The position numbers were made by a program, and so were the translations under genes. A stretch of 64,000 nucleotides of DNA from assembly GCF_041886205.1 (NCBI RefSeq), contig NZ_CP169029.1. The stretch is one strand, 5' to 3'. The notes beneath the pieces are model-generated. The model saw only the letters and a program-made list of their open reading frames with translations. It searched no databases and had not been told where the DNA came from. Each line of letters opens with the position of its first letter. The stretch's first letter is position 1. This document shows positions 1 through 51,981 of the stretch, one piece after another. The DNA comes from Escherichia coli (GTDB taxonomy: Bacteria; Pseudomonadota; Gammaproteobacteria; Enterobacterales; Enterobacteriaceae).

Positions 1-1000
1 CGACAAAGGGTTCGCGCACGCCATTCCAGTCAAATGAACTGTTGAGGATCGCTTCGGCAGTGTCACCATTGGGATATTGATCGGTCCAGTGGCGTTGTCC
101 CTGGAAGCCCGCAGCGATGGCGTTGTAGCCAAGTGATTCTTCCACGCGACCAATATCGGCCAGTTTGCTGTTGCCTTGCATCATGTCGCGGATACACATC
201 GCCATCAGTAAACTTTCGCGCAGAACTGCGCGGCTTTGCTCGGCATTGCGTTGATACTGTTTGTTATTTTCATCTTCGCCGTAGCGGAAGTTTTTATCAG
301 CCCAGGCCAGCGCCATTTCCAGTTCGGCTTCGTCGTAAATCTTCTGATCGATACGGCGACGCAGTTCGGTCATATCCACCGCCTGGACTTTCATTCCCAG
401 CCAGGATTCAAAGAAGTTGTGATCAACGATGGAACCAGCGATACCCATCGAAACGCCGCCCAGCGACAGATAGCTTTTACCTTTCATGCTGGCGACTGCC
501 AAACCGGCGCGGGCAAAGCGCAGCAGTTTTTCTTCAACATCGGCTGGAATCGATGTGTCATCGGCATCCTGAACGTCATGACCGTAAATGGAGAATGCCG
601 GGATGCCTTTCTGGCTGTGAGCTGCCAGAGCCGCTGCCAGGTAAACAGCGCCGGGACGTTCAGTGCCGTTAAAGCCCCAAATGGCTTTCGGGCGGGTTGG
701 ATCCATGTCGATGGTTTCACTGCCATAGCACCAGCAAGGCGTTACCGTAATGGTGAGGCCTACATTCTGGCTGCTGAATTTTTCTTCGCAAGCAGCGGCT
801 TCAGCCATACCCGCGATACAGGTATCGGAAATGACACACTCGACGGCAGCTCCGCAGGCATGGCGCAGTTTCTCGGTCAGCAGTGTGGCCGTGGCTTTCG
901 CCATATTCATTGTTTGTTCTTCAAGCGACTCACGAACACCCATGCGACGACCGTCAATAACCGGGCGGATACCAATTTTCGGTAACGTATTAATTTTCAT
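1..1000 (-). CDS. fucI: L-fucose isomerase, 5' part only (gene continues beyond window start)
   Basis: Reverse-complement translation from ATG at 1000 gives [33 protein letters not shown]..., matching FucI; GAGG RBS upstream; no in-frame stop before window edge. Confidence 0.85.
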
Positions 1001-1082
1001 CAGGATTCCTCATCTCGCTTTATTGGCGCTCTGCTAAGGCGGAGAAAGGAAACCACCGAAGCAGTAGTATTGGTCATTATTT

Positions 1083-1098
1083 GCTAACTCGAGTTAGC
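1083..1098. promoter_or_regulatory. Perfect 16-bp palindrome GCTAACTCGAGTTAGC, candidate operator (copy 1)
   Basis: Self-complementary 16-mer in the fucI / ABC-transporter divergent intergenic region; identical copy at 1322-1337. Confidence 0.35.
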
Positions 1099-1321
1099 TT
1101 AGGTTTGTAGGCTTTTTATGCACAACTTTTTTGTTGTTGAAATGTGAGGGGCTTCACGAGAAGTGGTTAAAATACGATCTCTGTCAAATTATTATTTAGC
1201 GGGAGAAAAATAAATTTTACGTATAATCATATGGTTATTAGATTTTAATGGTTATGCATCACAGTTTTAACTCAAATGATTTGGCTAATTTGTATACCTA
1301 AAATAGCTTTAAAAGGCGATC

Positions 1322-1337
1322 GCTAACTCGAGTTAGC
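1322..1337. promoter_or_regulatory. Perfect 16-bp palindrome GCTAACTCGAGTTAGC, candidate operator (copy 2)
   Basis: Identical to 1083-1098; about 130 bp upstream of the ABC ATPase start. Confidence 0.35.
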
Positions 1338-1469
1338 AAAATGCGAAGAATAGATTGATGCGATGAATATTTATTCAAAGGTTATTCGTATCACAGTGGA
1401 GATGGCTTTAGTAGCGACGTTTATGCCGTACTTCACATTTTCAGTTTCTGATTATTGAGGAAAGCTGCA

Positions 1470-2969
1470 ATGTCCGAAACATTTTTGCAAATGAAGCATA
1501 TCACCAAACGCTTTCCTGGAGTGTTGGCGCTTAATGACGTGCAATTTTCCCTACGCCGGGGCGAGGTTCATGCATTATTAGGTGAAAATGGTGCAGGAAA
1601 ATCTACCTTAATGAAAATTTTGTCGGGGGTTTATCAACCTGATGAAGGCGAAATAATTTTTGAAGATAAACCAGTCTCATTTTCTGATCCGTTAAGTGCG
1701 CAAAACGTAGGTATTACTATTATTCACCAGGAATTTAATTTATTTCCCGAGCTTACAGTAGAAGAAAATATTTTTATCGGCAGGGAGTTTTGTAAAAAAA
1801 ATCGCTGGCGTCTGGATGAAAAACAGCAACGCCAGGCGACGATTGAAATTTTGCAAAAATTAAATTTGGCGATCAAACCAGATACTCTGGTTGCCGACCT
1901 TACGGTAGCTCAGCAGCAGATGGTAGAAATTGCCAAGGCCATTTCAGTTAACGCCAGGATTCTCATTATGGATGAACCTACTGCGGCGTTAACAGAAACT
2001 GAAATTGAAAGCTTATTTCGCGTCACCCGGTTATTGAAAGAGCAGGGGACCGGCATTGTTTATATCTCCCACCGTCTGGAAGAGTTGGCGCTAATTGCCG
2101 ACCGTGCGACTGTAATGCGTGATGGTCAGTACATCAGCACGGTGGATTATGAGTGCGTAAAAATCAGCGATCTGATTGCCATGATGGTTGGTCGCGATTT
2201 AGGGAATATCTATCCCCGCCGCGAGGCCTTGCAGCAGCGGATTCCGGTTCTGGAGGTAAACGGACTGACGCGCAAAGGCGTCCTGAACGATATTAATTTT
2301 ACGCTTTATCGTGGCGAGATCCTCGGCTTTGCCGGACTGATGGGCGCGGGGCGTACTGAACTTGCGCGTGCGATTTTTGGTGCGGATTCTATTGACAGCG
2401 GAACGCTAAAATTAAATGGTAAGGAAACCGTTATTAAAGATATTTCGGATGCTATTCAGCAGGGAATTAGTTACCTGACGGAAGACCGCAAAAAAGAAGG
2501 GCTGGCGCTGAATTTATCTGTTGAACGAAATATTATGTTAGGAAACTACCCTGAATATTCCGATCGTTTTGGGAATGTCGATTCGCGTCGTTGCCAACAA
2601 ACCAGTGAGGAACAGGTAAAAGCGTTAAGGATTAAAACGCCAAATCTTGAACAGGCGGCATTAAATCTAAGTGGAGGAAACCAGCAGAAAATTATAATTG
2701 CACGTTGGGTGTGTAAAGATACTGATATTTTAATCTTCGATGAACCCACTCGCGGCATTGATGTTGGCGCCAAACTGGAAATCTATGAGTTAATGAATCG
2801 CCTGGTGGCAAAAGGGAAATCAATCATCATGATCTCCTCTGAATTGCCTGAGGTGTTAGGAATGTGCGACCGTATTTTAGTGATGCGCAGTGGTCGAATT
2901 ACCGGCGAACTTAGCGCAAAAGAAGCGACACAAGAAAAAATTATGCAATACGCGACGTTAGAGGATTAA
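1470..2969 (+). CDS. Sugar ABC transporter ATP-binding protein, two fused ABC domains (RbsA/XylG-like)
   Basis: ORF with Walker A GENGAGKST and second ABC domain; ATG 1470 with GAGG RBS (ORF track starts at TTG 1455). Confidence 0.85.
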   Translation: MSETFLQMKHITKRFPGVLALNDVQFSLRRGEVHALLGENGAGKSTLMKILSGVYQPDEGEIIFEDKPVSFSDPLSAQNVGITIIHQEFNLFPELTVEENIFIGREFCKKNRWRLDEKQQRQATIEILQKLNLAIKPDTLVADLTVAQQQMVEIAKAISVNARILIMDEPTAALTETEIESLFRVTRLLKEQGTGIVYISHRLEELALIADRATVMRDGQYISTVDYECVKISDLIAMMVGRDLGNIYPRREALQQRIPVLEVNGLTRKGVLNDINFTLYRGEILGFAGLMGAGRTELARAIFGADSIDSGTLKLNGKETVIKDISDAIQQGISYLTEDRKKEGLALNLSVERNIMLGNYPEYSDRFGNVDSRRCQQTSEEQVKALRIKTPNLEQAALNLSGGNQQKIIIARWVCKDTDILIFDEPTRGIDVGAKLEIYELMNRLVAKGKSIIMISSELPEVLGMCDRILVMRSGRITGELSAKEATQEKIMQYATLED

Positions 2970-2972
2970 ATT

Positions 2973-3956
2973 ATGACTATCTCTGTAACCTCTCCAGACA
3001 GTAATAATAAGAAAATAAAGATAAATAAAGAACTTTTGATGCGTCTTGCGCCTCTTTTTAGCTTAATTATATTAGTGCTGTTTTTTAGTTTCAGCTCTCC
3101 CTTTTTCTTTAATACCGAAAATATCATGACGATTGCTCTGCAAACGTCGGTTATCGGCATTATGGCCATTGGGGTAACTTTCGTCATTATTACCGCGGGC
3201 ATCGATCTTTCATTGGGCTCCGTGGTGGCTTTTTCTGGTGTCGCCGTGGGGATTTGCGCCACACTGGGCCTGCCGCTGCCAGTGTGTATTATTGCCGGTG
3301 TTTTAGCCGGTGGAATGTGCGGCTATGTGAATGGTTTGTTGGTCACTAAAATGACCATTCCACCATTTATCGCTACCTTGGGCCTGATGATGTCCGTCAG
3401 AGGTATCAATATGGTGATGACCGACGGGCGCGCCATCTATTTTGCCGATTACCCGATGTTCAAAACGCTCGCTCAGGGACGCTTATTTGATGTGCTGCCT
3501 TATCCTGTTTTCTACCTTGTCATTGTAGCGCTTGTCGGCGCTTACATCCTGAAGAAAACCGTCATTGGTCGCTATGTCTATGCCGTAGGCAGTAATGAAG
3601 TTGCTGCTCATCTTTCTGGTATTAAAGTTCAGCGCGTGAAAATTTTCGTCTATGCCTTCTGTGGATTATTAACGGGGATTGCAGGTGTCATTCTGGCATC
3701 TCGTCTCAACTCCGGACAACCGACGGTAGGTGTGGGTTATGAACTGGAAGCTATTGCCGCGGTAGTGATTGGCGGAACCAGCTTAATGGGCGGTATTGGC
3801 ACTATTGGCGGCACAATCATTGGCGCTTTCATTATGAGTGTACTGAAAAATGGCCTCAATTTAATGGGCGTCTCCCAGTTCTGGCAAATGGTCGCGATGG
3901 GCGTCGTTGTGGTCGCTGCCGTTTACCTCGATACATTACGCAAAAAGATTCGTTGA
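2973..3956 (+). CDS. Sugar ABC transporter permease (RbsC-like)
   Basis: 327-aa hydrophobic multi-TM protein; ATG 4 nt after ATPase stop; GAGGA RBS. Confidence 0.85.
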   Translation: MTISVTSPDSNNKKIKINKELLMRLAPLFSLIILVLFFSFSSPFFFNTENIMTIALQTSVIGIMAIGVTFVIITAGIDLSLGSVVAFSGVAVGICATLGLPLPVCIIAGVLAGGMCGYVNGLLVTKMTIPPFIATLGLMMSVRGINMVMTDGRAIYFADYPMFKTLAQGRLFDVLPYPVFYLVIVALVGAYILKKTVIGRYVYAVGSNEVAAHLSGIKVQRVKIFVYAFCGLLTGIAGVILASRLNSGQPTVGVGYELEAIAAVVIGGTSLMGGIGTIGGTIIGAFIMSVLKNGLNLMGVSQFWQMVAMGVVVVAAVYLDTLRKKIR

Positions 3957-4029
3957 CTTAGGCTCCCTGTTTTATCGGGAAACAACTGCCCTGACGTTAA
4001 GGGTGATTCACTCAGAACGGAGTACAACA

Positions 4030-4980
4030 ATGAAAACCAGGCATTTTATCTATGCGTTATCTCTGCTGGCTTGCGTAAGTTCCAGCGCACTGGCGAAGGA
4101 TTTAAATCTTCCGGTTGTTAGTAAAGGTTTCCAACATGAATTCTGGCAAACCGTAAAAATGGGGACTGAAGCTGCGGCTAAAGAGTTGGGGGATAAAACC
4201 AGCTATGTTGGCCCGGCTGATGAAACGCAAATAGCCGAGCAAATTCAGTTAGTCGAAAATGCGATGGCGCAGAAACCGAATGGCTTGCTTCTGGCAGCCC
4301 TCGACGCGAATGCGCTCGCCCCACTGGTAGAAACGGCAAATTCACGCGGTATCAAAGTGGTGACCTTTGATTCAGGCATCAATTCAGACATTCCGGTGAG
4401 TTTTGTCGCCACCAATAACCGTAAAGCAGGTGCTCAGGCAGCTGATGCCTTAGCCTCGCAGGTAAATAATAAAGGGAAAGTTGGGATTATCGCGCACGTT
4501 GCAGGAACATCTTCCGCTATTGAACGCTCGGAAGGCTTCATGGAGCGTATGAAAGAAAAATATCCTGACATTAAAGTCTTACCCGTTCAGTACAGCGATG
4601 GTGACCCGCAAAAAGCGATGGATAAAACTATCGATATGATTCAGGCCAATCCCGATCTTGCTGGGATCTATGGCACCAATGAAGGTTCAACGCTCGGGGT
4701 GGCGAATGCCATTGATAGCCAGAATCTGAAAGGTAAGGTGAAGGTCATTGGTTTTGATAGTACGGAAGCGATTATTAACTTCCTGAAGAACGGCGTCATT
4801 CAGGGCTTTGTTGTTCAGGATGCATACCAGATTGGCTATCAAGGGATCAAAACGTTGAACGCGGCCCTTTCGGGGCAAGCCGTTGAAAAAGAGATCGATA
4901 TTCCCGTGAAATTTGTTAATGCCGAGAATATTAACACGCCAGAAATCGACAAACTCCTGCACCCATTCGGTAAGAAATAA
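4030..4980 (+). CDS. Periplasmic sugar-binding protein of ABC transporter (RbsB-like)
   Basis: Signal peptide MKTRHFIYALSLLACVSSSALA then PBP-like domain; ATG 4030 with GGAG RBS (ORF track start 3907 is an upstream extension). Confidence 0.8.
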   Translation: MKTRHFIYALSLLACVSSSALAKDLNLPVVSKGFQHEFWQTVKMGTEAAAKELGDKTSYVGPADETQIAEQIQLVENAMAQKPNGLLLAALDANALAPLVETANSRGIKVVTFDSGINSDIPVSFVATNNRKAGAQAADALASQVNNKGKVGIIAHVAGTSSAIERSEGFMERMKEKYPDIKVLPVQYSDGDPQKAMDKTIDMIQANPDLAGIYGTNEGSTLGVANAIDSQNLKGKVKVIGFDSTEAIINFLKNGVIQGFVVQDAYQIGYQGIKTLNAALSGQAVEKEIDIPVKFVNAENINTPEIDKLLHPFGKK

Positions 4981-5032
4981 AAAATTGGGGATGAATTTTC
5001 ATCCCCGTTATCTCCAGCGTCAGGGAGGCTTT

Positions 5033-6613
5033 ATGCACAACGGTTATTTTCTCGGTGTCGATGTCGGATCGGCCAGTGTCAGGGCAGGCGTTTACAGTGC
5101 CAGTGGCCACAGGCTGGCATTCGCTACTGCGCCCGTCTCCCAGTTTCGCCCTGGCGGCGAGCGTGTCGAACAGTCTTCGGCAGAGATCTGGCAACAAGTT
5201 TGTAAAACGGTGAAAGAGGCGACAGCTTTGGCAGGCATCCCCATTTCCGCAATTCGCTCACTGGGTTTTGACGCTACCTGCTCGCTGGTTGTTCTTGATG
5301 AACAAGGCCAGGGTTTAGCGGTTTCGTCCGGTGGATCTGCGAATCACGACATTATTATGTGGATGGATCATCGTGCAACTGTCGAGACGGCGCAGATTAA
5401 CGCAATGAAGGATCCCGCATTGCGCTACGTTGGCGGCGAAGTGAGCGTCGAGATGGAGTTACCAAAGTTACGTTGGTTGAAGACGCATCTACCGCAAACC
5501 TGGCAGGCCGCTCATCGCTTTTTCGATCTGGCGGATTTTCTGGTCTGGAAAGCAACAGGGCGAGACGTCGCGGGATTATGCACGCTAACGTGTAAATGGA
5601 ATTATCTAGCTCATGAGCAACGCTTTAGCCATAGCTTACTGGAATCGATAGACCTGACCGATATGCTTGAAAGAATTCCTGCCAACATTCTTCCGCCTGG
5701 CGCTGCCGTGGGAACGTTAACCGCCACAGCTGCTGAAGAGTTAGGATTAACGACTAATGTTATCGTGGCCAGTGGCTTGATTGATGCCCATGCCGGTGGC
5801 GTGGCGCTGGCTGGCGCTCACCCATCAGGAACGCTGGCATTGATAAGCGGAACGTCGAACTGCCATATGCTGTGTAGTGAAAAAGAGATATTCACCCCTG
5901 GCGTCTGGGGGCCATACTGGTCGGCCATGTTGCCAAATTACTGGCTAACCGAAGGCGGGCAAAGCGCCGCAGGGGCGCTGGTGGAGTGGACGCTTCAGGA
6001 GTCAGGGGCAAGCGCAAATCTTTTTCACAAGGCGCAGCAACGCGGATGTCATCCGATTCAACTGATTAATGAATGGGTAGCAGCCCTTGAAGCTAACGAG
6101 TCAGAACCCACACGAAATTTACATGTGCTTGCCGATCATCACGGCAACCGTTCGCCACGAGCGCGGCCCGATGCCAGAGGCAGTGTTTATGGCTTAACAC
6201 TGGAGCGTGGTGAAAATCAGCTCGCGCGACTTTATCTTGCGACTTTACAGGCAATAGCCTTTGGCACCAGACATATTATTGAAACTCTGCGGGAAAATGG
6301 GCATACCATTACCCGATTAACATTATGTGGTGGTGCAACGCACAACCCTTTATGGCTACGCGAATATGCAGACGTGACAGGTTGCGATATCCACCTGATG
6401 CAAGAAGAAGATGCCGTTACGTTGGGCGCAGCAATTAGCGGCGCTGTTGCCAGCGGAGCATGGGGGGATTTTACATCTGCGTGTAAAGCAATGGTTGAAG
6501 CCGGAGAGATTATTCAGGTAAATCCACAACGCCGTGAATTTTTAGAGCGTAAATACCGGGTTTACCTGACGCTTTGGGAGCAACAACAGGCGGTTAACCA
6601 ACTGATGCAATAA
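5033..6613 (+). CDS. FGGY-family carbohydrate kinase (pentulose/ribulokinase-like)
   Basis: N-terminal YFLGVDVGSASVRAGV glycine-rich kinase motif and C-terminal LCGGATHNPLW motif typical of FGGY kinases; ATG 5033 with GGGAGG RBS. Confidence 0.8.
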   Translation: MHNGYFLGVDVGSASVRAGVYSASGHRLAFATAPVSQFRPGGERVEQSSAEIWQQVCKTVKEATALAGIPISAIRSLGFDATCSLVVLDEQGQGLAVSSGGSANHDIIMWMDHRATVETAQINAMKDPALRYVGGEVSVEMELPKLRWLKTHLPQTWQAAHRFFDLADFLVWKATGRDVAGLCTLTCKWNYLAHEQRFSHSLLESIDLTDMLERIPANILPPGAAVGTLTATAAEELGLTTNVIVASGLIDAHAGGVALAGAHPSGTLALISGTSNCHMLCSEKEIFTPGVWGPYWSAMLPNYWLTEGGQSAAGALVEWTLQESGASANLFHKAQQRGCHPIQLINEWVAALEANESEPTRNLHVLADHHGNRSPRARPDARGSVYGLTLERGENQLARLYLATLQAIAFGTRHIIETLRENGHTITRLTLCGGATHNPLWLREYADVTGCDIHLMQEEDAVTLGAAISGAVASGAWGDFTSACKAMVEAGEIIQVNPQRREFLERKYRVYLTLWEQQQAVNQLMQ

Positions 6614-6677
6614 GACAAAAGTTGAAAATACTTTTATGATTGTGATTTGACGTCTGGATGTTAACTGGGAAATACCT

Positions 6678-7676
6678 ATGGCTAAAACAGTAGAGCAGAT
6701 AGCCAGCGACCTGAATTTATCGGTTACGACCGTGCGACTGGTGCTAAATGGAAAAGCGGAACAATATCGAATCAGCGTCAAAACCCAAACGCGTATCAAT
6801 GAATATGTTGAACGCTATGGTTATATCATTAATCATTCCGCTCGCAGCCTTAAGCTTAACAAAACTGATACATTAGGGTTGATTGTTCCCAACATATCCA
6901 ACGTCTTTTTTGCTACGCTGGCAGAAAAACTCGAACAACGCTGTCGACGTTCCGGATATCAACTTACAATCAGTTGCACTTATGATGATGTTGACTATGA
7001 AAATAAATTGACGAAAGCATTTATCGCACGAAATGTAGATGGTCTTTTTATTGTTCCTTCGACGCTGGAAAATCAGCAGCATCATTTACGCAAAATTCGT
7101 AAGCCCATGGTTTTACTCGATCGTGATTTTAAATATACCGATAACGCATTGGTAGAGAGTAATAATATTTCTGGCGGAGAAAAGCTGACGCAAAATATTC
7201 TTGAGGCCGGGCAGACTCCAGTATGGTTTTTGCTGGGAGATGCCGGTTTGCCGAGTATCAGCGATCGTCTGACAGGTTATTTGAATGCGTTGGCAAAAAA
7301 AGGGATTACCCATCGCGATTGGGTGCGGGAAGGTCCGGTAAATACTCCGGAAGGCGGCTATGTCATTATGGAAAAACTCATTGAAGAGCAGGGATGTCCG
7401 CAGGCATTTATCGCCTCGTCTTTGCCTGTGCTTGAAGGCGCTGTCCGCGCGATTCGCGACCGTCTTGGCGCTGTACCGCCAGAAATCAATATTGGCACTT
7501 TCGATGAACATCCTATGCTGGGATTTCTCGCCAACAATGTCTGGTCAATGCAGCAGGATGAAAATGCCTGGGCAGAAAAAGCGTTCGAAATGATGTTAAG
7601 CGCGATCGAAGAAAGACCAGTCAAAAAAACAGTTAAAGTAGAAATGAAATTAATTAAGCGCATAAGAAAAAAATAA
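6678..7676 (+). CDS. LacI-family transcriptional regulator
   Basis: N-terminal HTH (TVEQIASDLNLSVTTVRLVLNG) plus periplasmic-binding-like sugar domain; Lys-rich C-terminal tail. Confidence 0.85.
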   Translation: MAKTVEQIASDLNLSVTTVRLVLNGKAEQYRISVKTQTRINEYVERYGYIINHSARSLKLNKTDTLGLIVPNISNVFFATLAEKLEQRCRRSGYQLTISCTYDDVDYENKLTKAFIARNVDGLFIVPSTLENQQHHLRKIRKPMVLLDRDFKYTDNALVESNNISGGEKLTQNILEAGQTPVWFLLGDAGLPSISDRLTGYLNALAKKGITHRDWVREGPVNTPEGGYVIMEKLIEEQGCPQAFIASSLPVLEGAVRAIRDRLGAVPPEINIGTFDEHPMLGFLANNVWSMQQDENAWAEKAFEMMLSAIEERPVKKTVKVEMKLIKRIRKK

Positions 7677-7808
7677 TAATCGCCAAAAGATATCAGGCTA
7701 CTGAACAATGATATTCAGTGGCCTCCCCTTACTAAAAATAACCCCGTCTTCATTTGCGGTGCTGTTTTACGCAACAAGGCGAGCTGAAACTGTATCTGGA
7801 GAATAGAA

Positions 7809-8456
7809 ATGGAAAGAACACGTTTATCCCGTGAAATAATTGAAACCTGTCTGGAAATGACGCGCCTTGGGTTAAATCAGGGGACAGCGGGGAATGTCAG
7901 CACACGTTTTGAAAACGGCATGTTGATTACTCCCAGCGGTATTCCTTATGAAAGAATGACGGAGAATATGATTGTCTATGTTGATGGCAACGGCAAATAC
8001 GAAGAAGGTAAGATTCCTTCCAGCGAGTGGCGTTTCCATATGGCAGCCTATCAAAGCAGACCGGATGCCAACGCGGTTGTTCACAATCATGCCGTTCATT
8101 GCACGGCAGTTTCCATTCTTAACCGACCGATCCCCGCTATTCACTACATGATTGCGGCGGCGGGCGGTAATTCTATTCCTTGCGCGCCTTATGCGACCTT
8201 TGGAACACGTGAACTTTCTGAACATGTTGCGCTGGCTCTCAAAAATCGTAAGGCAACTTTGTTACAACATCATGGGCTTATCGCTTGTGAGGTGAATCTG
8301 GAAAAAGCGTTATGGCTGGCGCATGAAGTTGAAGTGCTGGCGCAACTTTACCTGACGACCCTGGCGATTACGGACCCGGTGCCAGTGCTGAGCGATGAAG
8401 AGATTGCCGTAGTGCTGGAGAAATTCAAAACCTATGGGTTACGGATTGAAGAGTAA
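7809..8456 (+). CDS. fucA: L-fuculose-1-phosphate aldolase, N-terminal third divergent from the K-12 form
   Basis: 215-aa class II aldolase; C-terminal two-thirds matches K-12 FucA as I recall it, first ~68 residues carry many substitutions. Confidence 0.9.
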   Translation: MERTRLSREIIETCLEMTRLGLNQGTAGNVSTRFENGMLITPSGIPYERMTENMIVYVDGNGKYEEGKIPSSEWRFHMAAYQSRPDANAVVHNHAVHCTAVSILNRPIPAIHYMIAAAGGNSIPCAPYATFGTRELSEHVALALKNRKATLLQHHGLIACEVNLEKALWLAHEVEVLAQLYLTTLAITDPVPVLSDEEIAVVLEKFKTYGLRIEE

Positions 8457-8483
8457 TTTCGTAAAGCAACAAGGAGAAGGATG

Positions 8484-9632
8484 ATGGCTAACAGAATGAT
8501 TCTGAACGAAACGGCATGGTTTGGTCGGGGTGCTGTTGGGGCTTTAACCGATGAGGTGAAACGCCGTGGTTATCAGAAGGCGCTGATCGTCACCGATAAA
8601 ACGCTGGTGCAATGCGGCGTGGTGGCGAAAGTGACCGATAAGATGGATGCGGCAGGGCTGGCATGGGCGATTTACGACGGCGTAGTGCCCAACCCAACAA
8701 TTACTGTCGTCAAAGAAGGGCTCGGTGTATTCCAGAATAGCGGCGCGGATTACCTGATTGCTATTGGTGGTGGTTCTCCACAGGATACTTGTAAAGCGAT
8801 TGGTATTATCAGCAACAACCCGGAATTTGCCGATGTGCGTAGCCTGGAAGGACTTTCCCCGACCAATAAACCCAGTGTACCGATTCTGGCAATTCCCACC
8901 ACAGCAGGCACTGCGGCAGAAGTGACCATTAACTACGTGATCACTGACGAAGAAAAACGGCGCAAGTTTGTTTGCGTTGATCCGCATGATATCCCGCAGG
9001 TGGCGTTTATTGACGCTGACATGATGGATGGTATGCCTCCAGCGCTGAAAGCTGCGACGGGTGTCGATGCGCTCACTCATGCTATTGAGGGGTATATTAC
9101 CCGTGGCGCGTGGGCGCTAACCGATGCGCTGCACATTAAAGCGATTGAAATCATTGCTGGGGCGCTGCGAGGATCGGTTGCTGGTGATAAGGATGCCGGA
9201 GAAGAAATGGCGCTCGGGCAGTATGTTGCGGGTATGGGCTTCTCGAATGTTGGCTTAGGGTTGGTGCATGGTATGGCGCATCCACTGGGCGCGTTTTACA
9301 ACACTCCACACGGTGTTGCGAACGCCATCCTGTTACCGCATGTCATGCGCTATAACGCTGACTTTACCGGTGAGAAGTACCGCGATATCGCGCGCGTTAT
9401 GGGCGTGAAAGTGGAAGGTATGAGCCTGGAAGAGGCGCGTAATGCCGCTGTTGAAGCGGTGTTTGCTCTCAACCGTGATGTCGGTATTCCGCCACATTTG
9501 CGTGATGTTGGGGTACGCAAGGAAGACATTCCGGCACTGGCGCAGGCGGCACTGGATGATGTTTGTACCGGTGGCAACCCGCGTGAAGCAACGCTTGAGG
9601 ATATTGTAGAGCTTTACCATACCGCCTGGTAA
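8484..9632 (+). CDS. fucO: Lactaldehyde reductase (L-1,2-propanediol oxidoreductase)
   Basis: MANRMILNETAWFGRGAVGAL... iron-containing alcohol dehydrogenase; second ATG chosen to give the 382-aa form. Confidence 0.93.
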   Translation: MANRMILNETAWFGRGAVGALTDEVKRRGYQKALIVTDKTLVQCGVVAKVTDKMDAAGLAWAIYDGVVPNPTITVVKEGLGVFQNSGADYLIAIGGGSPQDTCKAIGIISNNPEFADVRSLEGLSPTNKPSVPILAIPTTAGTAAEVTINYVITDEEKRRKFVCVDPHDIPQVAFIDADMMDGMPPALKAATGVDALTHAIEGYITRGAWALTDALHIKAIEIIAGALRGSVAGDKDAGEEMALGQYVAGMGFSNVGLGLVHGMAHPLGAFYNTPHGVANAILLPHVMRYNADFTGEKYRDIARVMGVKVEGMSLEEARNAAVEAVFALNRDVGIPPHLRDVGVRKEDIPALAQAALDDVCTGGNPREATLEDIVELYHTAW

Positions 9633-9644
9633 ATGCGCTGATGT

Positions 9645-9690
9645 GATAATGCCGGATACGACGCTAGCCGCGTCTTATCCGGCATATAAG
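9645..9690. repeat. REP-type palindromic element between convergent fucO and xni
   Basis: GCCGGATACGACGCTAGCCGCGTCTTATCCGGC, characteristic REP sequence. Confidence 0.6.
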
Positions 9691-9736
9691 TGCATTAAAT
9701 TCAATGTGTTGATAATCGTTTGCATACGGCACGTCG

Positions 9737-10603
<867 letters not shown>

Positions 10604-11971
10604 TTAATCGCAGGCAACGATCTTCATTGCCAGGCCGCCGCGAGAGGTTTCGCGGTACTTGGCGTTCATATCTTTACCTGTTTCGTACATGGTTTCGATA
10701 ACTTTATCGAGGCAGACGCGCGGCTCGCTGGTACGGCGCAGCGCCATACGTGCGGCGTTCACCGCTTTTACTGCCGCAATGGCGTTACGCTCGATGCATG
10801 GCACCTGGACCTGTCCGGCGACCGGGTCACACGTCAGACCGAGGTTGTGCTCCATGGCGATTTCCGCCGCGATGCACACCTGCGCCGGGCTTGCGCCTAA
10901 TAGTTCTGCCAGACCAGCCGCCGCCATTGAGCACGCCACGCCAACTTCACCCTGGCAACCCACTTCAGCACCAGAAATCGACGCGTTCATCTTATAAAGA
11001 GAACCAATGGCGCTGGCTACCAGCAGGTAACGAGCCAGTGAGTTAGCGTTCACTTCGCGGATAAACTTATCGTAGTACGCCAGCACAGCCGGGATAATCC
11101 CGCACGCACCGTTAGTCGGCGCAGTCACCACGCGACCGCCAGCGGCGTTCTCTTCGTTCACTGCCAGTGCAAACATGTTGATCCAGTCAACAACCGCCAT
11201 CGGGTCAGTGGTGGTTTTATCCTGGCTGACCAGCATCCGGCGTAGTGCCGCAGCACGGCGTGGAACGCGCAGTTTGCCAGGCAACACGCCTTCGGTGGAA
11301 ATACCGCGCTCAATACCGCCACGCATGACTTCCCAGACGTTCGCCAGGTGCTGTTCCAGCTCTTCTTTGCTGTGCAGCGCCAGCTCGTTTTTCATCATCA
11401 GGCCAGAGAGTGACAGCCCGGTTTCCTGACAATGTTTTTGCAGATCGGCTGCTGAACTGTACGGATAAGGAACTTCAACCGGTGCGCTATCCTGCTGGCC
11501 AAAATGCTCTTCATCAACGATAAAGCCACCGCCAATAGAGTAGTAAGTCTGGCTGTAAACGACTTTATCGCCCGCCAGCGCGGTAATGCGCATACCGTTT
11601 TCATGCAGAGAAAGGTTGTCTGCATGGAAGTTCATGCACTGATCAACCGGGAACTCCACTTCATGCTGACCGTTTGCCAGCATCAGGCGACCATGAGTAT
11701 TCACATCCTGAATAAAACCGGGGATGGAATCGATATCCACGGTATCCGGCAGGTTACCCGCCAGGCCCATAATAATGGCGATATCAGTGTGGTGGCCTTT
11801 ACCAGTCAGAGAGAGCGAGCCGTACACGTCAACCACCACGCGGGTCACGTCTTTAAGCAGGTTACGGGCAATCAGATCGTCGGTAAATTGTTTACCCGCT
11901 TTCATTGGTCCAACGGTATGAGAACTGGAAGGGCCAATGCCGATTTTGAAAATATCGAATACGCTAATCAT
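10604..11971 (-). CDS. sdaB: L-serine dehydratase 2
   Basis: 455 aa, MISVFDIFKIGIGPSSSHTVGPM...; Fe-S serine dehydratase. Confidence 0.95.
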   Translation of the reverse strand: MISVFDIFKIGIGPSSSHTVGPMKAGKQFTDDLIARNLLKDVTRVVVDVYGSLSLTGKGHHTDIAIIMGLAGNLPDTVDIDSIPGFIQDVNTHGRLMLANGQHEVEFPVDQCMNFHADNLSLHENGMRITALAGDKVVYSQTYYSIGGGFIVDEEHFGQQDSAPVEVPYPYSSAADLQKHCQETGLSLSGLMMKNELALHSKEELEQHLANVWEVMRGGIERGISTEGVLPGKLRVPRRAAALRRMLVSQDKTTTDPMAVVDWINMFALAVNEENAAGGRVVTAPTNGACGIIPAVLAYYDKFIREVNANSLARYLLVASAIGSLYKMNASISGAEVGCQGEVGVACSMAAAGLAELLGASPAQVCIAAEIAMEHNLGLTCDPVAGQVQVPCIERNAIAAVKAVNAARMALRRTSEPRVCLDKVIETMYETGKDMNAKYRETSRGGLAMKIVACD

Positions 11972-12028
11972 AGGAAATACATCGCGTTAAAACGGAGGAA
12001 GCGCCGCCCGAAAGCGGCGCGAAAGGAC

Positions 12029-51246: not shown

Positions 51247-51981
51247 ATGTCCAAACTCGATCTAAACGCCCTGAACGAACTGCCGAAGGTAGATCGCATT
51301 CTGGCGCTGGCAGAAACTAACGCCGAACTGGAAAAACTGGACGCTGAAGGCCGCGTCGCCTGGGCGCTGGAAAATCTGCCCGGTGAATATGTACTTTCCT
51401 CCAGCTTTGGCATTCAGGCGGCGGTGAGCCTGCATCTGGTGAATCAGATTCGCCCGGATATTCCGGTGATCCTCACCGATACGGGTTACTTGTTCCCGGA
51501 AACCTACCGCTTTATTGACGAGTTAACGGACAAACTCAAGCTCAACCTGAAAGTGTACCGCGCTACCGAAAGCGCCGCCTGGCAGGAAGCACGTTACGGA
51601 AAACTATGGGAGCAGGGCGTTGAAGGCATTGAAAAGTACAATGACATCAACAAAGTCGAACCGATGAACCGGGCGCTGAAAGAACTGAATGCGCAAACGT
51701 GGTTTGCTGGCCTGCGGCGTGAACAATCCGGCAGCCGTGCCAATTTACCGGTGTTGGCAATTCAGCGTGGCGTATTTAAAGTGCTGCCGATTATCGACTG
51801 GGATAACCGAACTATTTATCAGTACCTGCAAAAACATGGCCTGAAATATCACCCATTATGGGACGAAGGATATTTATCGGTGGGCGATACCCATACAACC
51901 CGTAAATGGGAACCTGGCATGGCGGAAGAAGAAACGCGTTTCTTTGGCTTAAAAAGGGAATGTGGGTTACACGAAGGGTAA
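51247..51981 (+). CDS. cysH: Phosphoadenosine phosphosulfate (PAPS) reductase
   Basis: 244 aa from [23 protein letters not shown]; ORF track start 51094 is an upstream extension. Confidence 0.95.

Follow-up and report, generated by a model that had tools for sequence, protein, structure and literature searches.

A spacer of 469 bp in a 64-kb stretch of Escherichia coli DNA (the window, 64,000 nucleotides at its full length) raises the question of what two identical and perfectly symmetrical 16-mers are doing between two divergent gene clusters. The spacer (1001-1469) separates fucI, read from the minus strand (ATG 1000-998), from the ATPase gene of a sugar ABC transporter (ATG 1470), and its A+T content is 64%, against 50% for the window. 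From sequence comparison, we conclude that the palindromes are very probably operators of a Cra/FruR-like repressor encoded in the adjacent operon, and that they lie in a 255-bp module that would drive two back-to-back CRP-dependent promoters. The elements that this reading brings together are as follows:

1083-1098, no strand: op1, GCTAACTCGAGTTAGC, the fucI-proximal palindrome, centred 90.5 bp upstream of the fucI start codon
1322-1337, no strand: op2, identical to op1, proximal to the ABC operon and centred 140.5 bp upstream of the ATPase start codon
6678-7676, plus strand: gene of a LacI-family regulator of 332 amino acids, of the Cra/FruR-like branch, the proposed cognate repressor

The twin palindromes and their proposed partner regulator

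Reading of the sequence and a pattern search of the window both place GCTAACTCGAGTTAGC at the two positions given above, 239 bp apart from start to start, as the first-pass annotation of this DNA had described them: perfect palindromes with a central CG in an A+T-rich divergent intergenic region. No further match with up to three mismatches was found in the window, and a shuffled-sequence control gave a mean of 0.15 matches, with two matches reached in 1 of 100 shuffles. Because about 0.98 perfect 16-bp palindromes are expected by chance in 64 kb, a lone one is unremarkable; the window contains three, and the probability of an identical second copy arising by chance inside the same spacer is about 1e-7. 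The third, AAGAAACGCGTTTCTT (51929-51944), lies inside the 3' end of a 295-codon open reading frame (ORF) resembling CysH, and chance is sufficient to account for it.

Size, symmetry and position all correspond to what is known of LacI-family operators, as the same annotation had supposed from size and symmetry. Motifs of this family are even palindromes of 16-22 nt for 1251 of 1303 regulators, with a central CG for 1173, and sites are mostly located 30-140 bp upstream of start codons (PMC4052901). The 16-mer and the 20-bp consensus derived below are both even palindromes with a central CG, and the distances of the two centres to the start codons (90.5 and 140.5 bp) agree with the typical range.

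The evidence that links the sites to the protein came from a retrieval of loci that started from the regulator and not from the motif. Orthologues 89, 78, 75, 72, 70, 58, and 57% identical to the E. coli protein (loci L003-L009) were collected, and in all seven loci the motif was present, with zero to three mismatches, upstream of the adjacent operons. A Citrobacter-like metagenome contig (L003) and Enterobacter lignolyticus (L004) both display a fucI/ABC divergon with two copies, 240 and 239 bp apart, respectively, and Serratia sp. S1B (L007) has two copies 238 bp apart. More generally, orthologues 56-91% identical are accompanied by the motif in several gene contexts, some of them without the ABC genes: Yokenella has a single copy upstream of an operon for a transporter, an alpha-L-fucosidase and the regulator; Superficieibacter has exact copies in the spacer between fucUI and the regulator gene and upstream of a GH172/MFS operon; and in Serratia fonticola and Sodalis copies precede operons in which the regulator is encoded together with MFS transporters and a DarK-like kinase. 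No DeoR-type fucR is present in the E. lignolyticus locus, whose operator module is nevertheless complete, which makes the LacI-type protein the consistent partner of the sites. The comparison thus supports the initial proposal that the palindromes are operators of the neighbouring LacI-family protein, predicted to control both the transporter operon and fucI.

A pattern scan with 14 specified bases over species-representative genomes (298 Gb, in which we estimate that about 1000 matches would occur by chance) added at least 11 twin-site loci from Citrobacter species, Phytobacter and other Enterobacteriaceae. Pooling of 37 sites gave a 20-bp palindromic consensus, ttGCTAAcTCGAgTTAGCaa.

The regulator gene is indeed located in the adjacent operon, where the first-pass annotation had put it. 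Of all solved structures, those of Cra proteins match its product best (E = 4e-37 to 1e-31), and it carries the branch-specific segment NGKAxQYRIS. Its scores against the NCBIfam model fruct_sucro_rep (235.8 bits, cutoff 389.55) and against the Cra model PRK11303 (217.6 bits, cutoff 385) are far under the curated cutoffs, which sets it in a distinct, unnamed group that is related to Cra/FruR but falls outside the Cra equivalog. Residues 1-70, that is, the DNA-binding head and hinge, are nearly invariant among orthologues, which fits a motif that has remained unchanged. The C-terminal heptad extension responsible for tetramerisation in LacI is absent, as the protein ends at residue 332 and its alignments to PurR and Cra run to residues 313-328. 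The precomputed Pfam annotation of close orthologues lists sugar-binding domains only, without the LacI helix-turn-helix (PF00356), and the latter is called "weak" even in 58% identical homologues, although the DNA-binding head (window 6678-6860) is clearly Cra-like; automated pipelines may therefore under-call this domain in the group.

Organisation and conservation of the intergenic module

We aligned the intergenic DNA of 15 twin-site loci of different genera, which is 49-71% identical to that of E. coli. The features recognised in this alignment, and the sites and promoter elements proposed from it, are listed here; the CRP boxes are scored against the CRP consensus TGTGA-N6-TCACA:

op1 (coordinates above): 1.88 bits per column, 13 of 16 columns invariant
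op2 (coordinates above): 1.86 bits per column, 12 of 16 columns invariant
1115-1120, minus strand: putative -10 element of the fucI promoter, CATAAA, proposed because the geometry suits it and most species have a -10-like hexamer at this place in the alignment
1143-1158, no strand: CRP box 1, TGTGAggggctTCACG, 9 of 10 matches to the consensus, centre at 1150.5
1185-1250: A+T-rich centre, midway between the operators, 0.90 bits per column, 64-86% A+T, one gap column in 67, variable in sequence and fixed in length
1248-1263, no strand: candidate CRP box 2, ATGGTtatgcaTCACA, 6 of 10 matches in E. coli and 7-8 of 10 in other species
1286-1304, plus strand: two candidate -10 elements of the ABC operon, TAATTT (1286-1291) and TAAAAT (1299-1304)
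Outer flanks: 0.94-1.09 bits per column, with gaps in 34 of 94 and 65 of 95 columns

No intergenic columns are better conserved than those of the twin sites, and op1 is retained in Citrobacter, E. lignolyticus, Serratia and others. The spacing between op1 and op2 is 238-240 bp in 15/15 loci; distances to the start codons vary from 75 to 102 bp on the fucI side and from 36 to 463 bp on the ABC side. Besides the operators and CRP box 1, the blocks GGTtAAAATtCGATC..CGTCAAAT, TCACAnTTT..CAAATGATTTGGCTA, and cTAAAATAGCTTT are conserved. Within E. coli, where nine polymorphic positions and no insertion or deletion were seen in two divergent alleles, the polymorphisms spare both operators and the CRP box. 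In Serratia sp. S1B, about 460 bp (L007 5720-6182) containing two ERIC-like units (…CCCTAGGAGCATAGC.ACTATGTGACTAGGGTGAACGA…), in which a 95-codon ORF is called, are found between op2 and the ABC start codon, and the module between the operators is intact at 238 bp.

Two further candidate sites in the central segment were rejected. A weak operator-like sequence with four mismatches, GATAACTCGTTTCAGC, occurs at L004 6168-6183 and also in L052 and L125, and aligns to about 1189-1204 of the window, in the variable centre; as it is confined to the E. lignolyticus clade and absent from E. coli, it does not qualify as a third, auxiliary operator. Of an IHF-like site, TGTCAAattaTTA, only the GTCAAAT portion is conserved.

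Both TGTGA and TCACG of CRP box 1 (TGTGA-N6-TCACG) are invariant, with 9 of 10 consensus matches in 15/15 loci, and the centre of the box lies exactly 60 bp from that of op1, again in 15/15. With CATAAA as the -10 element, fucI transcription would start near 1108-1109, CRP box 1 would be centred at about -41.5/-42.5, a position that depends on this putative -10, and op1 would cover about +11 to +26. On the right, candidate CRP box 2 is centred 105 bp from CRP box 1, with an invariant TCACA and a conserved TG in its left half, and the TCACA of the TCACAnTTT block might represent the better-matching half of a second, weaker CRP site. Taking TAATTT as the -10 element of the ABC operon would place this candidate box at about -42.5; TAAAAT, preceded by aTGAtt 17 bp upstream, is strongly conserved, and better so than the other candidate. 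Both candidates are proposed from the conserved blocks CAAATGATTTGGCTA and cTAAAATAGCTTT, and with either of them op2 would fall past the start, at a position between +12 and +40. The invariant 60-bp distance from CRP box 1 to op1 thus leads us to place the probable starts upstream of each operator, and a site just downstream of the start is the classical position for a repressor. An arrangement of face-to-face promoters built on two TTAAAA hexamers flagged by the promoter scan was discarded, because their partner -10 elements would lie in the variable centre and are not conserved.

The fuc cassette and the wider distribution of the site

The window contains the B/C/BL21-type fuc locus of E. 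coli, in which fucR-fucU-fucK-fucI are on the minus strand, while the plus strand encodes the ABC ATPase, permease and binding protein, an FGGY kinase, the LacI-family regulator, fucA and fucO. The region is 100% identical in E. coli C, in strains of the BL21 lineage and in many isolates. We found the spacer in 381 of 5426 complete E. coli genomes (about 7%), each time as a single chromosomal copy, which disposes of the alternative, raised by the first-pass annotation, that the motif is a common dispersed repeat. Carrier E. coli genomes have no annotated feature inside the spacer. One E. coli genome gave a second, plasmid-borne match to the 900-1600 query, which must correspond to a fucI fragment or copy since the spacer itself was never found on a plasmid. 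The surrounding features, with the ABC genes called from the RefSeq annotation of the identical E. coli C locus and from NCBIfam matches, are:

1013-7829, no strand: B/C-type locus DNA, delimited by blastn against MG1655, to which 1-1012 and 7830-12000 align and the interval between them does not
1-1000, minus strand: 5' part of fucI, 97.4% identical to K-12 fucI, in the leftward regulated unit; fucK, fucU and fucR lie beyond the window edge
1470-4980, plus strand: sugar ABC transporter, with ATPase (1470-2969), permease (2973-3956) and periplasmic binding protein (4030-4980)
5033-6613, plus strand: FGGY pentulose kinase (TIGR01315, 531 bits, over the cutoff)
7809-9632, plus strand: fucA and fucO, downstream of the regulator gene

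A cassette of about 6.8 kb, carrying the ABC transporter, the D-ribulokinase DarK and the LacI-family regulator, therefore stands in place of K-12 fucP and of the fucA-fucP regulatory region. The left alignment to MG1655 ends 12 bp upstream of the fucI ATG and the right one starts at fucA codon 8, so that the junctions are at 1012/1013 and 7829/7830, and both palindromes belong to cassette DNA, at least 70 bp from the left junction. The first 21 nt of fucA are cassette-derived; FucI begins with MKINTLPK here and with MKKISLPK in K-12. The flanking fuc genes are only 96.5-97.4% identical to those of K-12, which suggests that recombination with a diverged allele brought in the whole segment. E. 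coli B and C keep fucR, the gene of the DeoR-type activator (seen at L001 11586-12317), though its K-12 target region is gone.

Neither a terminator-like signal between the regulator gene and fucA nor an operator-like site upstream of fucA was found; fucAO are therefore probably co-transcribed with the cassette operon, in one rightward unit with the ABC genes, darK and the regulator gene. Inclusion of the latter in this unit means that the regulator is probably autoregulated.

At the gene level, the locus has been described as the D-arabinose cluster of B strains, with DarK (PMC12307932, PMC6150544, PMC3446290), and as the "variant 2" fuc operon, in which fucI is induced by fucose in BL21 (PMC10221146). 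The FGGY kinase is DarK, the D-ribulokinase of E. coli B (PMC12307932, PMC6150544), and B strains grow on D-arabinose (PMC3446290, PMC6150544). None of these papers on the locus mentions the regulator or an operator. Searches with the 16-mer returned only short hairpin RNA constructs with an XhoI loop, and searches with the locus tags only a metabolic-model paper; in the literature searched, we found no description of this orthologous group, of its motif or of the regulator-operator pair.

The site is also found outside fuc loci. Among the scan matches listed and in the Sodalis locus, sites lie about 15-25 bp upstream of genes for DarK-like FGGY kinases (55-62% identical) in Betaproteobacteria, Mangrovibacter, Brenneria, Acerihabitans and Sodalis. 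Downstream of these kinase genes there are often a gene of the DHDPS family, one of about 550 codons without Pfam match, and MFS transporter genes. The trio of kinase, regulator and operator seems older than its link to fuc genes. In at least eight non-enterobacterial loci (Actinobacteria, Chloroflexi and others), the 14-base pattern GCTAAnTCGAnTTAGC lies 27-107 bp upstream of distant LacI-family genes (24-29% identical), whose recognition helices differ. Judged from these sequences, the palindrome may be a recurrent operator form shared over a wide LacI sub-branch. The positions are:

Kinase-linked palindromes: L031 6833, L033 1822, L053 6824, L055 9426, L058 2683, L021 11792, L009 2238
GCTAAnTCGAnTTAGC by distant LacI-family genes: L010 8138, L056 12260, L062 6661, L063 844, L064 10705, L098 176, L104 4639, L111 2122

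Rival readings and the proposed circuit

Could the palindromes serve another protein? We hold it improbable that they are bound by the global regulator Cra or by the retained DeoR-type FucR. The palindrome does agree with the Cra operator, GCTGAAnC/GnTTCAGC (PMC7897506), at 10 of its 14 specified positions, and fucR is still present in E. coli B and C; however, each half-site has two mismatches to the TGAA of Cra, the motif accompanies the cassette regulator where fucR is missing from the locus or the species, and the FucR-controlled fuc region of K-12 has no such site within four mismatches. Like the fruBKA operators of Cra/FruR in E. coli, Pseudomonas putida and Vibrio cholerae, the sites are 16-bp palindromes with a central CG and the frame GCT-A--CG--T-AGC, and several operators share one divergent intergenic region; Cra proteins are the closest solved relatives of the regulator, with a common NGKAxQYR(I/V)S insertion in the DNA-binding domain. 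The regulator differs by its recognition helix (TTVRL, vs TTASY in Cra), its half-site (CTAAC, vs CTGAA) and scores under the family cutoffs, as well as by a local role in fucose/D-arabinose genes where Cra is global, and its effector is probably different.

Readings in which no regulator binds are weaker still. As RNA elements, the palindromes would be transcribed in 5' leaders as small hairpins acting on stability or attenuation. Both are probably in 5' untranslated regions, each can fold into a 6-bp stem with a 4-nt loop, and one is flagged as terminator-like; yet the hairpin is weak (-6.8 kcal/mol), and natural variants are uncompensated (C6/A11 in five species, and GCTAACTCGATGCAGC in Serratia sp. 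S1B, which loses three of six pairs and keeps one perfect half-site). Because of the weak stem and the uncompensated variants, we rejected a hairpin or terminator as the main function. Moreover, neither the distance nor the orientation of the motif relative to genes is constant, and the regulator gene is always close by; we consider an RNA role very improbable. An origin as terminal inverted repeats of a small mobile element, or as scars of the recombination that installed the cassette, is extremely improbable. It might be suggested by the inverted repeat, which in E. coli reaches 19 nt (TTTGCTAAC... / ...GTTAGCAAA) and flanks 223 bp, and by the location in a horizontally exchanged cassette. 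The 3-nt extension of the repeat is not conserved in other species, however, and by its sequence we read it as the weaker, T/A-rich outer flank of the consensus site and not as a transposon end. Both copies lie inside the cassette and not at its junctions, no direct duplication flanks them, the spacer never occurs elsewhere in the 381 carrier genomes, and the interior contains an invariant CRP box and promoter-like blocks. Copy number, the lack of a target duplication and the position relative to the boundaries thus all contradict a miniature inverted-repeat transposable element or other transposon.

A different question, compatible with the assignment of the sites as operators and not opposed to it, is whether they act together. 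Cooperative looping would require that the operators be bridged by dimer-dimer contact or by a helper protein, the 223-bp loop holding both promoters and the CRP sites, and that full repression need both sites in cis; we regard this as possible, on the doubtful side. In its favour are the nearly fixed spacing, kept though the 66-bp centre is barely conserved in sequence, the presence of gaps in only 4 of 225 interior alignment columns, far fewer than in the flanks, and the A+T-rich segment at what would be the loop apex. Bridging of Cra dimers by a partner kinase has also been proposed (PMC11157272). The helical phase depends on the repeat assumed: 239 bp corresponds to 22.98 turns at 10.4 bp per turn and to 22.76 turns, about a quarter-turn out of phase, at 10.5. 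In addition, twist is by our estimate cheap at this length, so that phasing alone would not hold the spacing to within 1 bp; overlapping promoter elements, or the distance of 105 bp between the two CRP sites, are another conceivable reason for the constant length.

The comparison with lac (LacI, O1/O2/O3) and gal (GalR, OE/OI, with HU) bears on the same point. Here as there, a LacI-family repressor would have an operator just past a CRP-activated promoter and a second one at a distance, with operator spacings of 92 and 401 bp in lac and 113 bp in gal, against 239 bp in the present case. Unlike LacI, however, the cassette regulator has no tetramerisation tail, and the two sites would serve two divergent promoters, so that two would be needed even without looping; in other loci, single sites serve the orthologues. 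That the 255-bp unit is a looped "repressosome" of a LacI-family protein without tetramerisation domain, which shuts both divergent promoters as one unit, is in our opinion unlikely. In such a structure, two dimers would be joined by bends induced by CRP or nucleoid proteins, or bridged by a pathway kinase, as in the bridge proposed for FruK and Cra.

We return to the main reading, in which both palindromes are operators of the cassette repressor. The 255-bp module (op1, CRP box, A+T-rich centre, second conserved block, op2) would be self-contained, with a leftward promoter dependent on cAMP-CRP for fucIKUR, and a rightward one, also cAMP-CRP-dependent, for the ABC transporter, darK, the regulator gene and probably fucAO. 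Each operator would hold one repressor dimer just past the transcription start, where it would block initiation or early elongation, and an inducer, most likely L-fucose or D-arabinose, would free both sites, so that both operons, DarK and the repressor would be induced together. Elsinghorst and Mortlock (in J Bacteriol, 1988) reportedly observed that, in E. coli B, free sugars and not their 1-phosphates are the apparent inducers, and constitutive mutants are said to derepress the Fuc enzymes and DarK together. Joint derepression would be expected if one and the same repressor controls the two operators. L-fucose and D-arabinose are the likely inducers, and fucI is fucose-induced in BL21 (PMC10221146).

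Several points weigh against this scheme. Operator binding and the sign of regulation are deduced from sequence, the promoter positions are predicted, with two rival -10 candidates for the rightward promoter, and candidate CRP box 2 is weak in E. coli. The pattern-scan loci were found with the motif itself, so that the invariance of the sites is in part circular, which does not affect the seven loci retrieved through the protein. Regulators of the Cra branch usually sense sugar phosphates, and the effector could be a ketose-1-phosphate rather than a free sugar. Finally, the retained FucR might act on other conserved blocks in E. coli.

With respect to known regulons, our inference and the type of site are those of the RegPrecise-style analysis of LacI-family regulators (Ravcheev et al. 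2014, PMC4052901), in which autoregulation applies to 72% of predicted local regulators and multiple sites are present in about 20% of operons; the distance of 239 bp is, in contrast, far from the common inter-site peaks at 13, 22, and 32 bp (PMC4052901). The K-12 fuc regulon, under the DeoR-family activator FucR with fuculose-1-phosphate and CRP, shares with the B/C locus the fucIKU and fucAO genes and the dependence on CRP, predicted here. The B/C locus lacks the fucA-fucP regulatory region and fucP, in whose place it has an ABC transporter and the predicted repressor/operator module. At these promoters, a repressor circuit would replace the FucR/fuculose-1-phosphate activator circuit in E. 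coli B, C, and BL21.

Through this comparison, a locus so far known only at the gene level, through DarK or as "variant 2", gains a putative regulator together with its operator sequence and a CRP site. The fuc variant is carried by BL21, other B strains and E. coli C, which are laboratory and industrial workhorses, and about 7% of complete E. coli genomes have it. The proposed circuit may provide a molecular account of the older data from E. coli B, in which Fuc enzymes and DarK show coordinate, sugar-induced expression. An orthogonal switch inducible by sugar might be built from the repressor and its 20-bp operator, whose half-sites are conserved from genus to genus, and the strict constancy of the 239-bp spacing makes the module a clean natural system in which to ask whether dimeric LacI-family proteins loop DNA. 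These data suggest that one cassette exchange was enough to convert a regulon controlled by an activator into one controlled by a repressor, the FucR circuit of K-12 being replaced wholesale in B/C/BL21-type strains.

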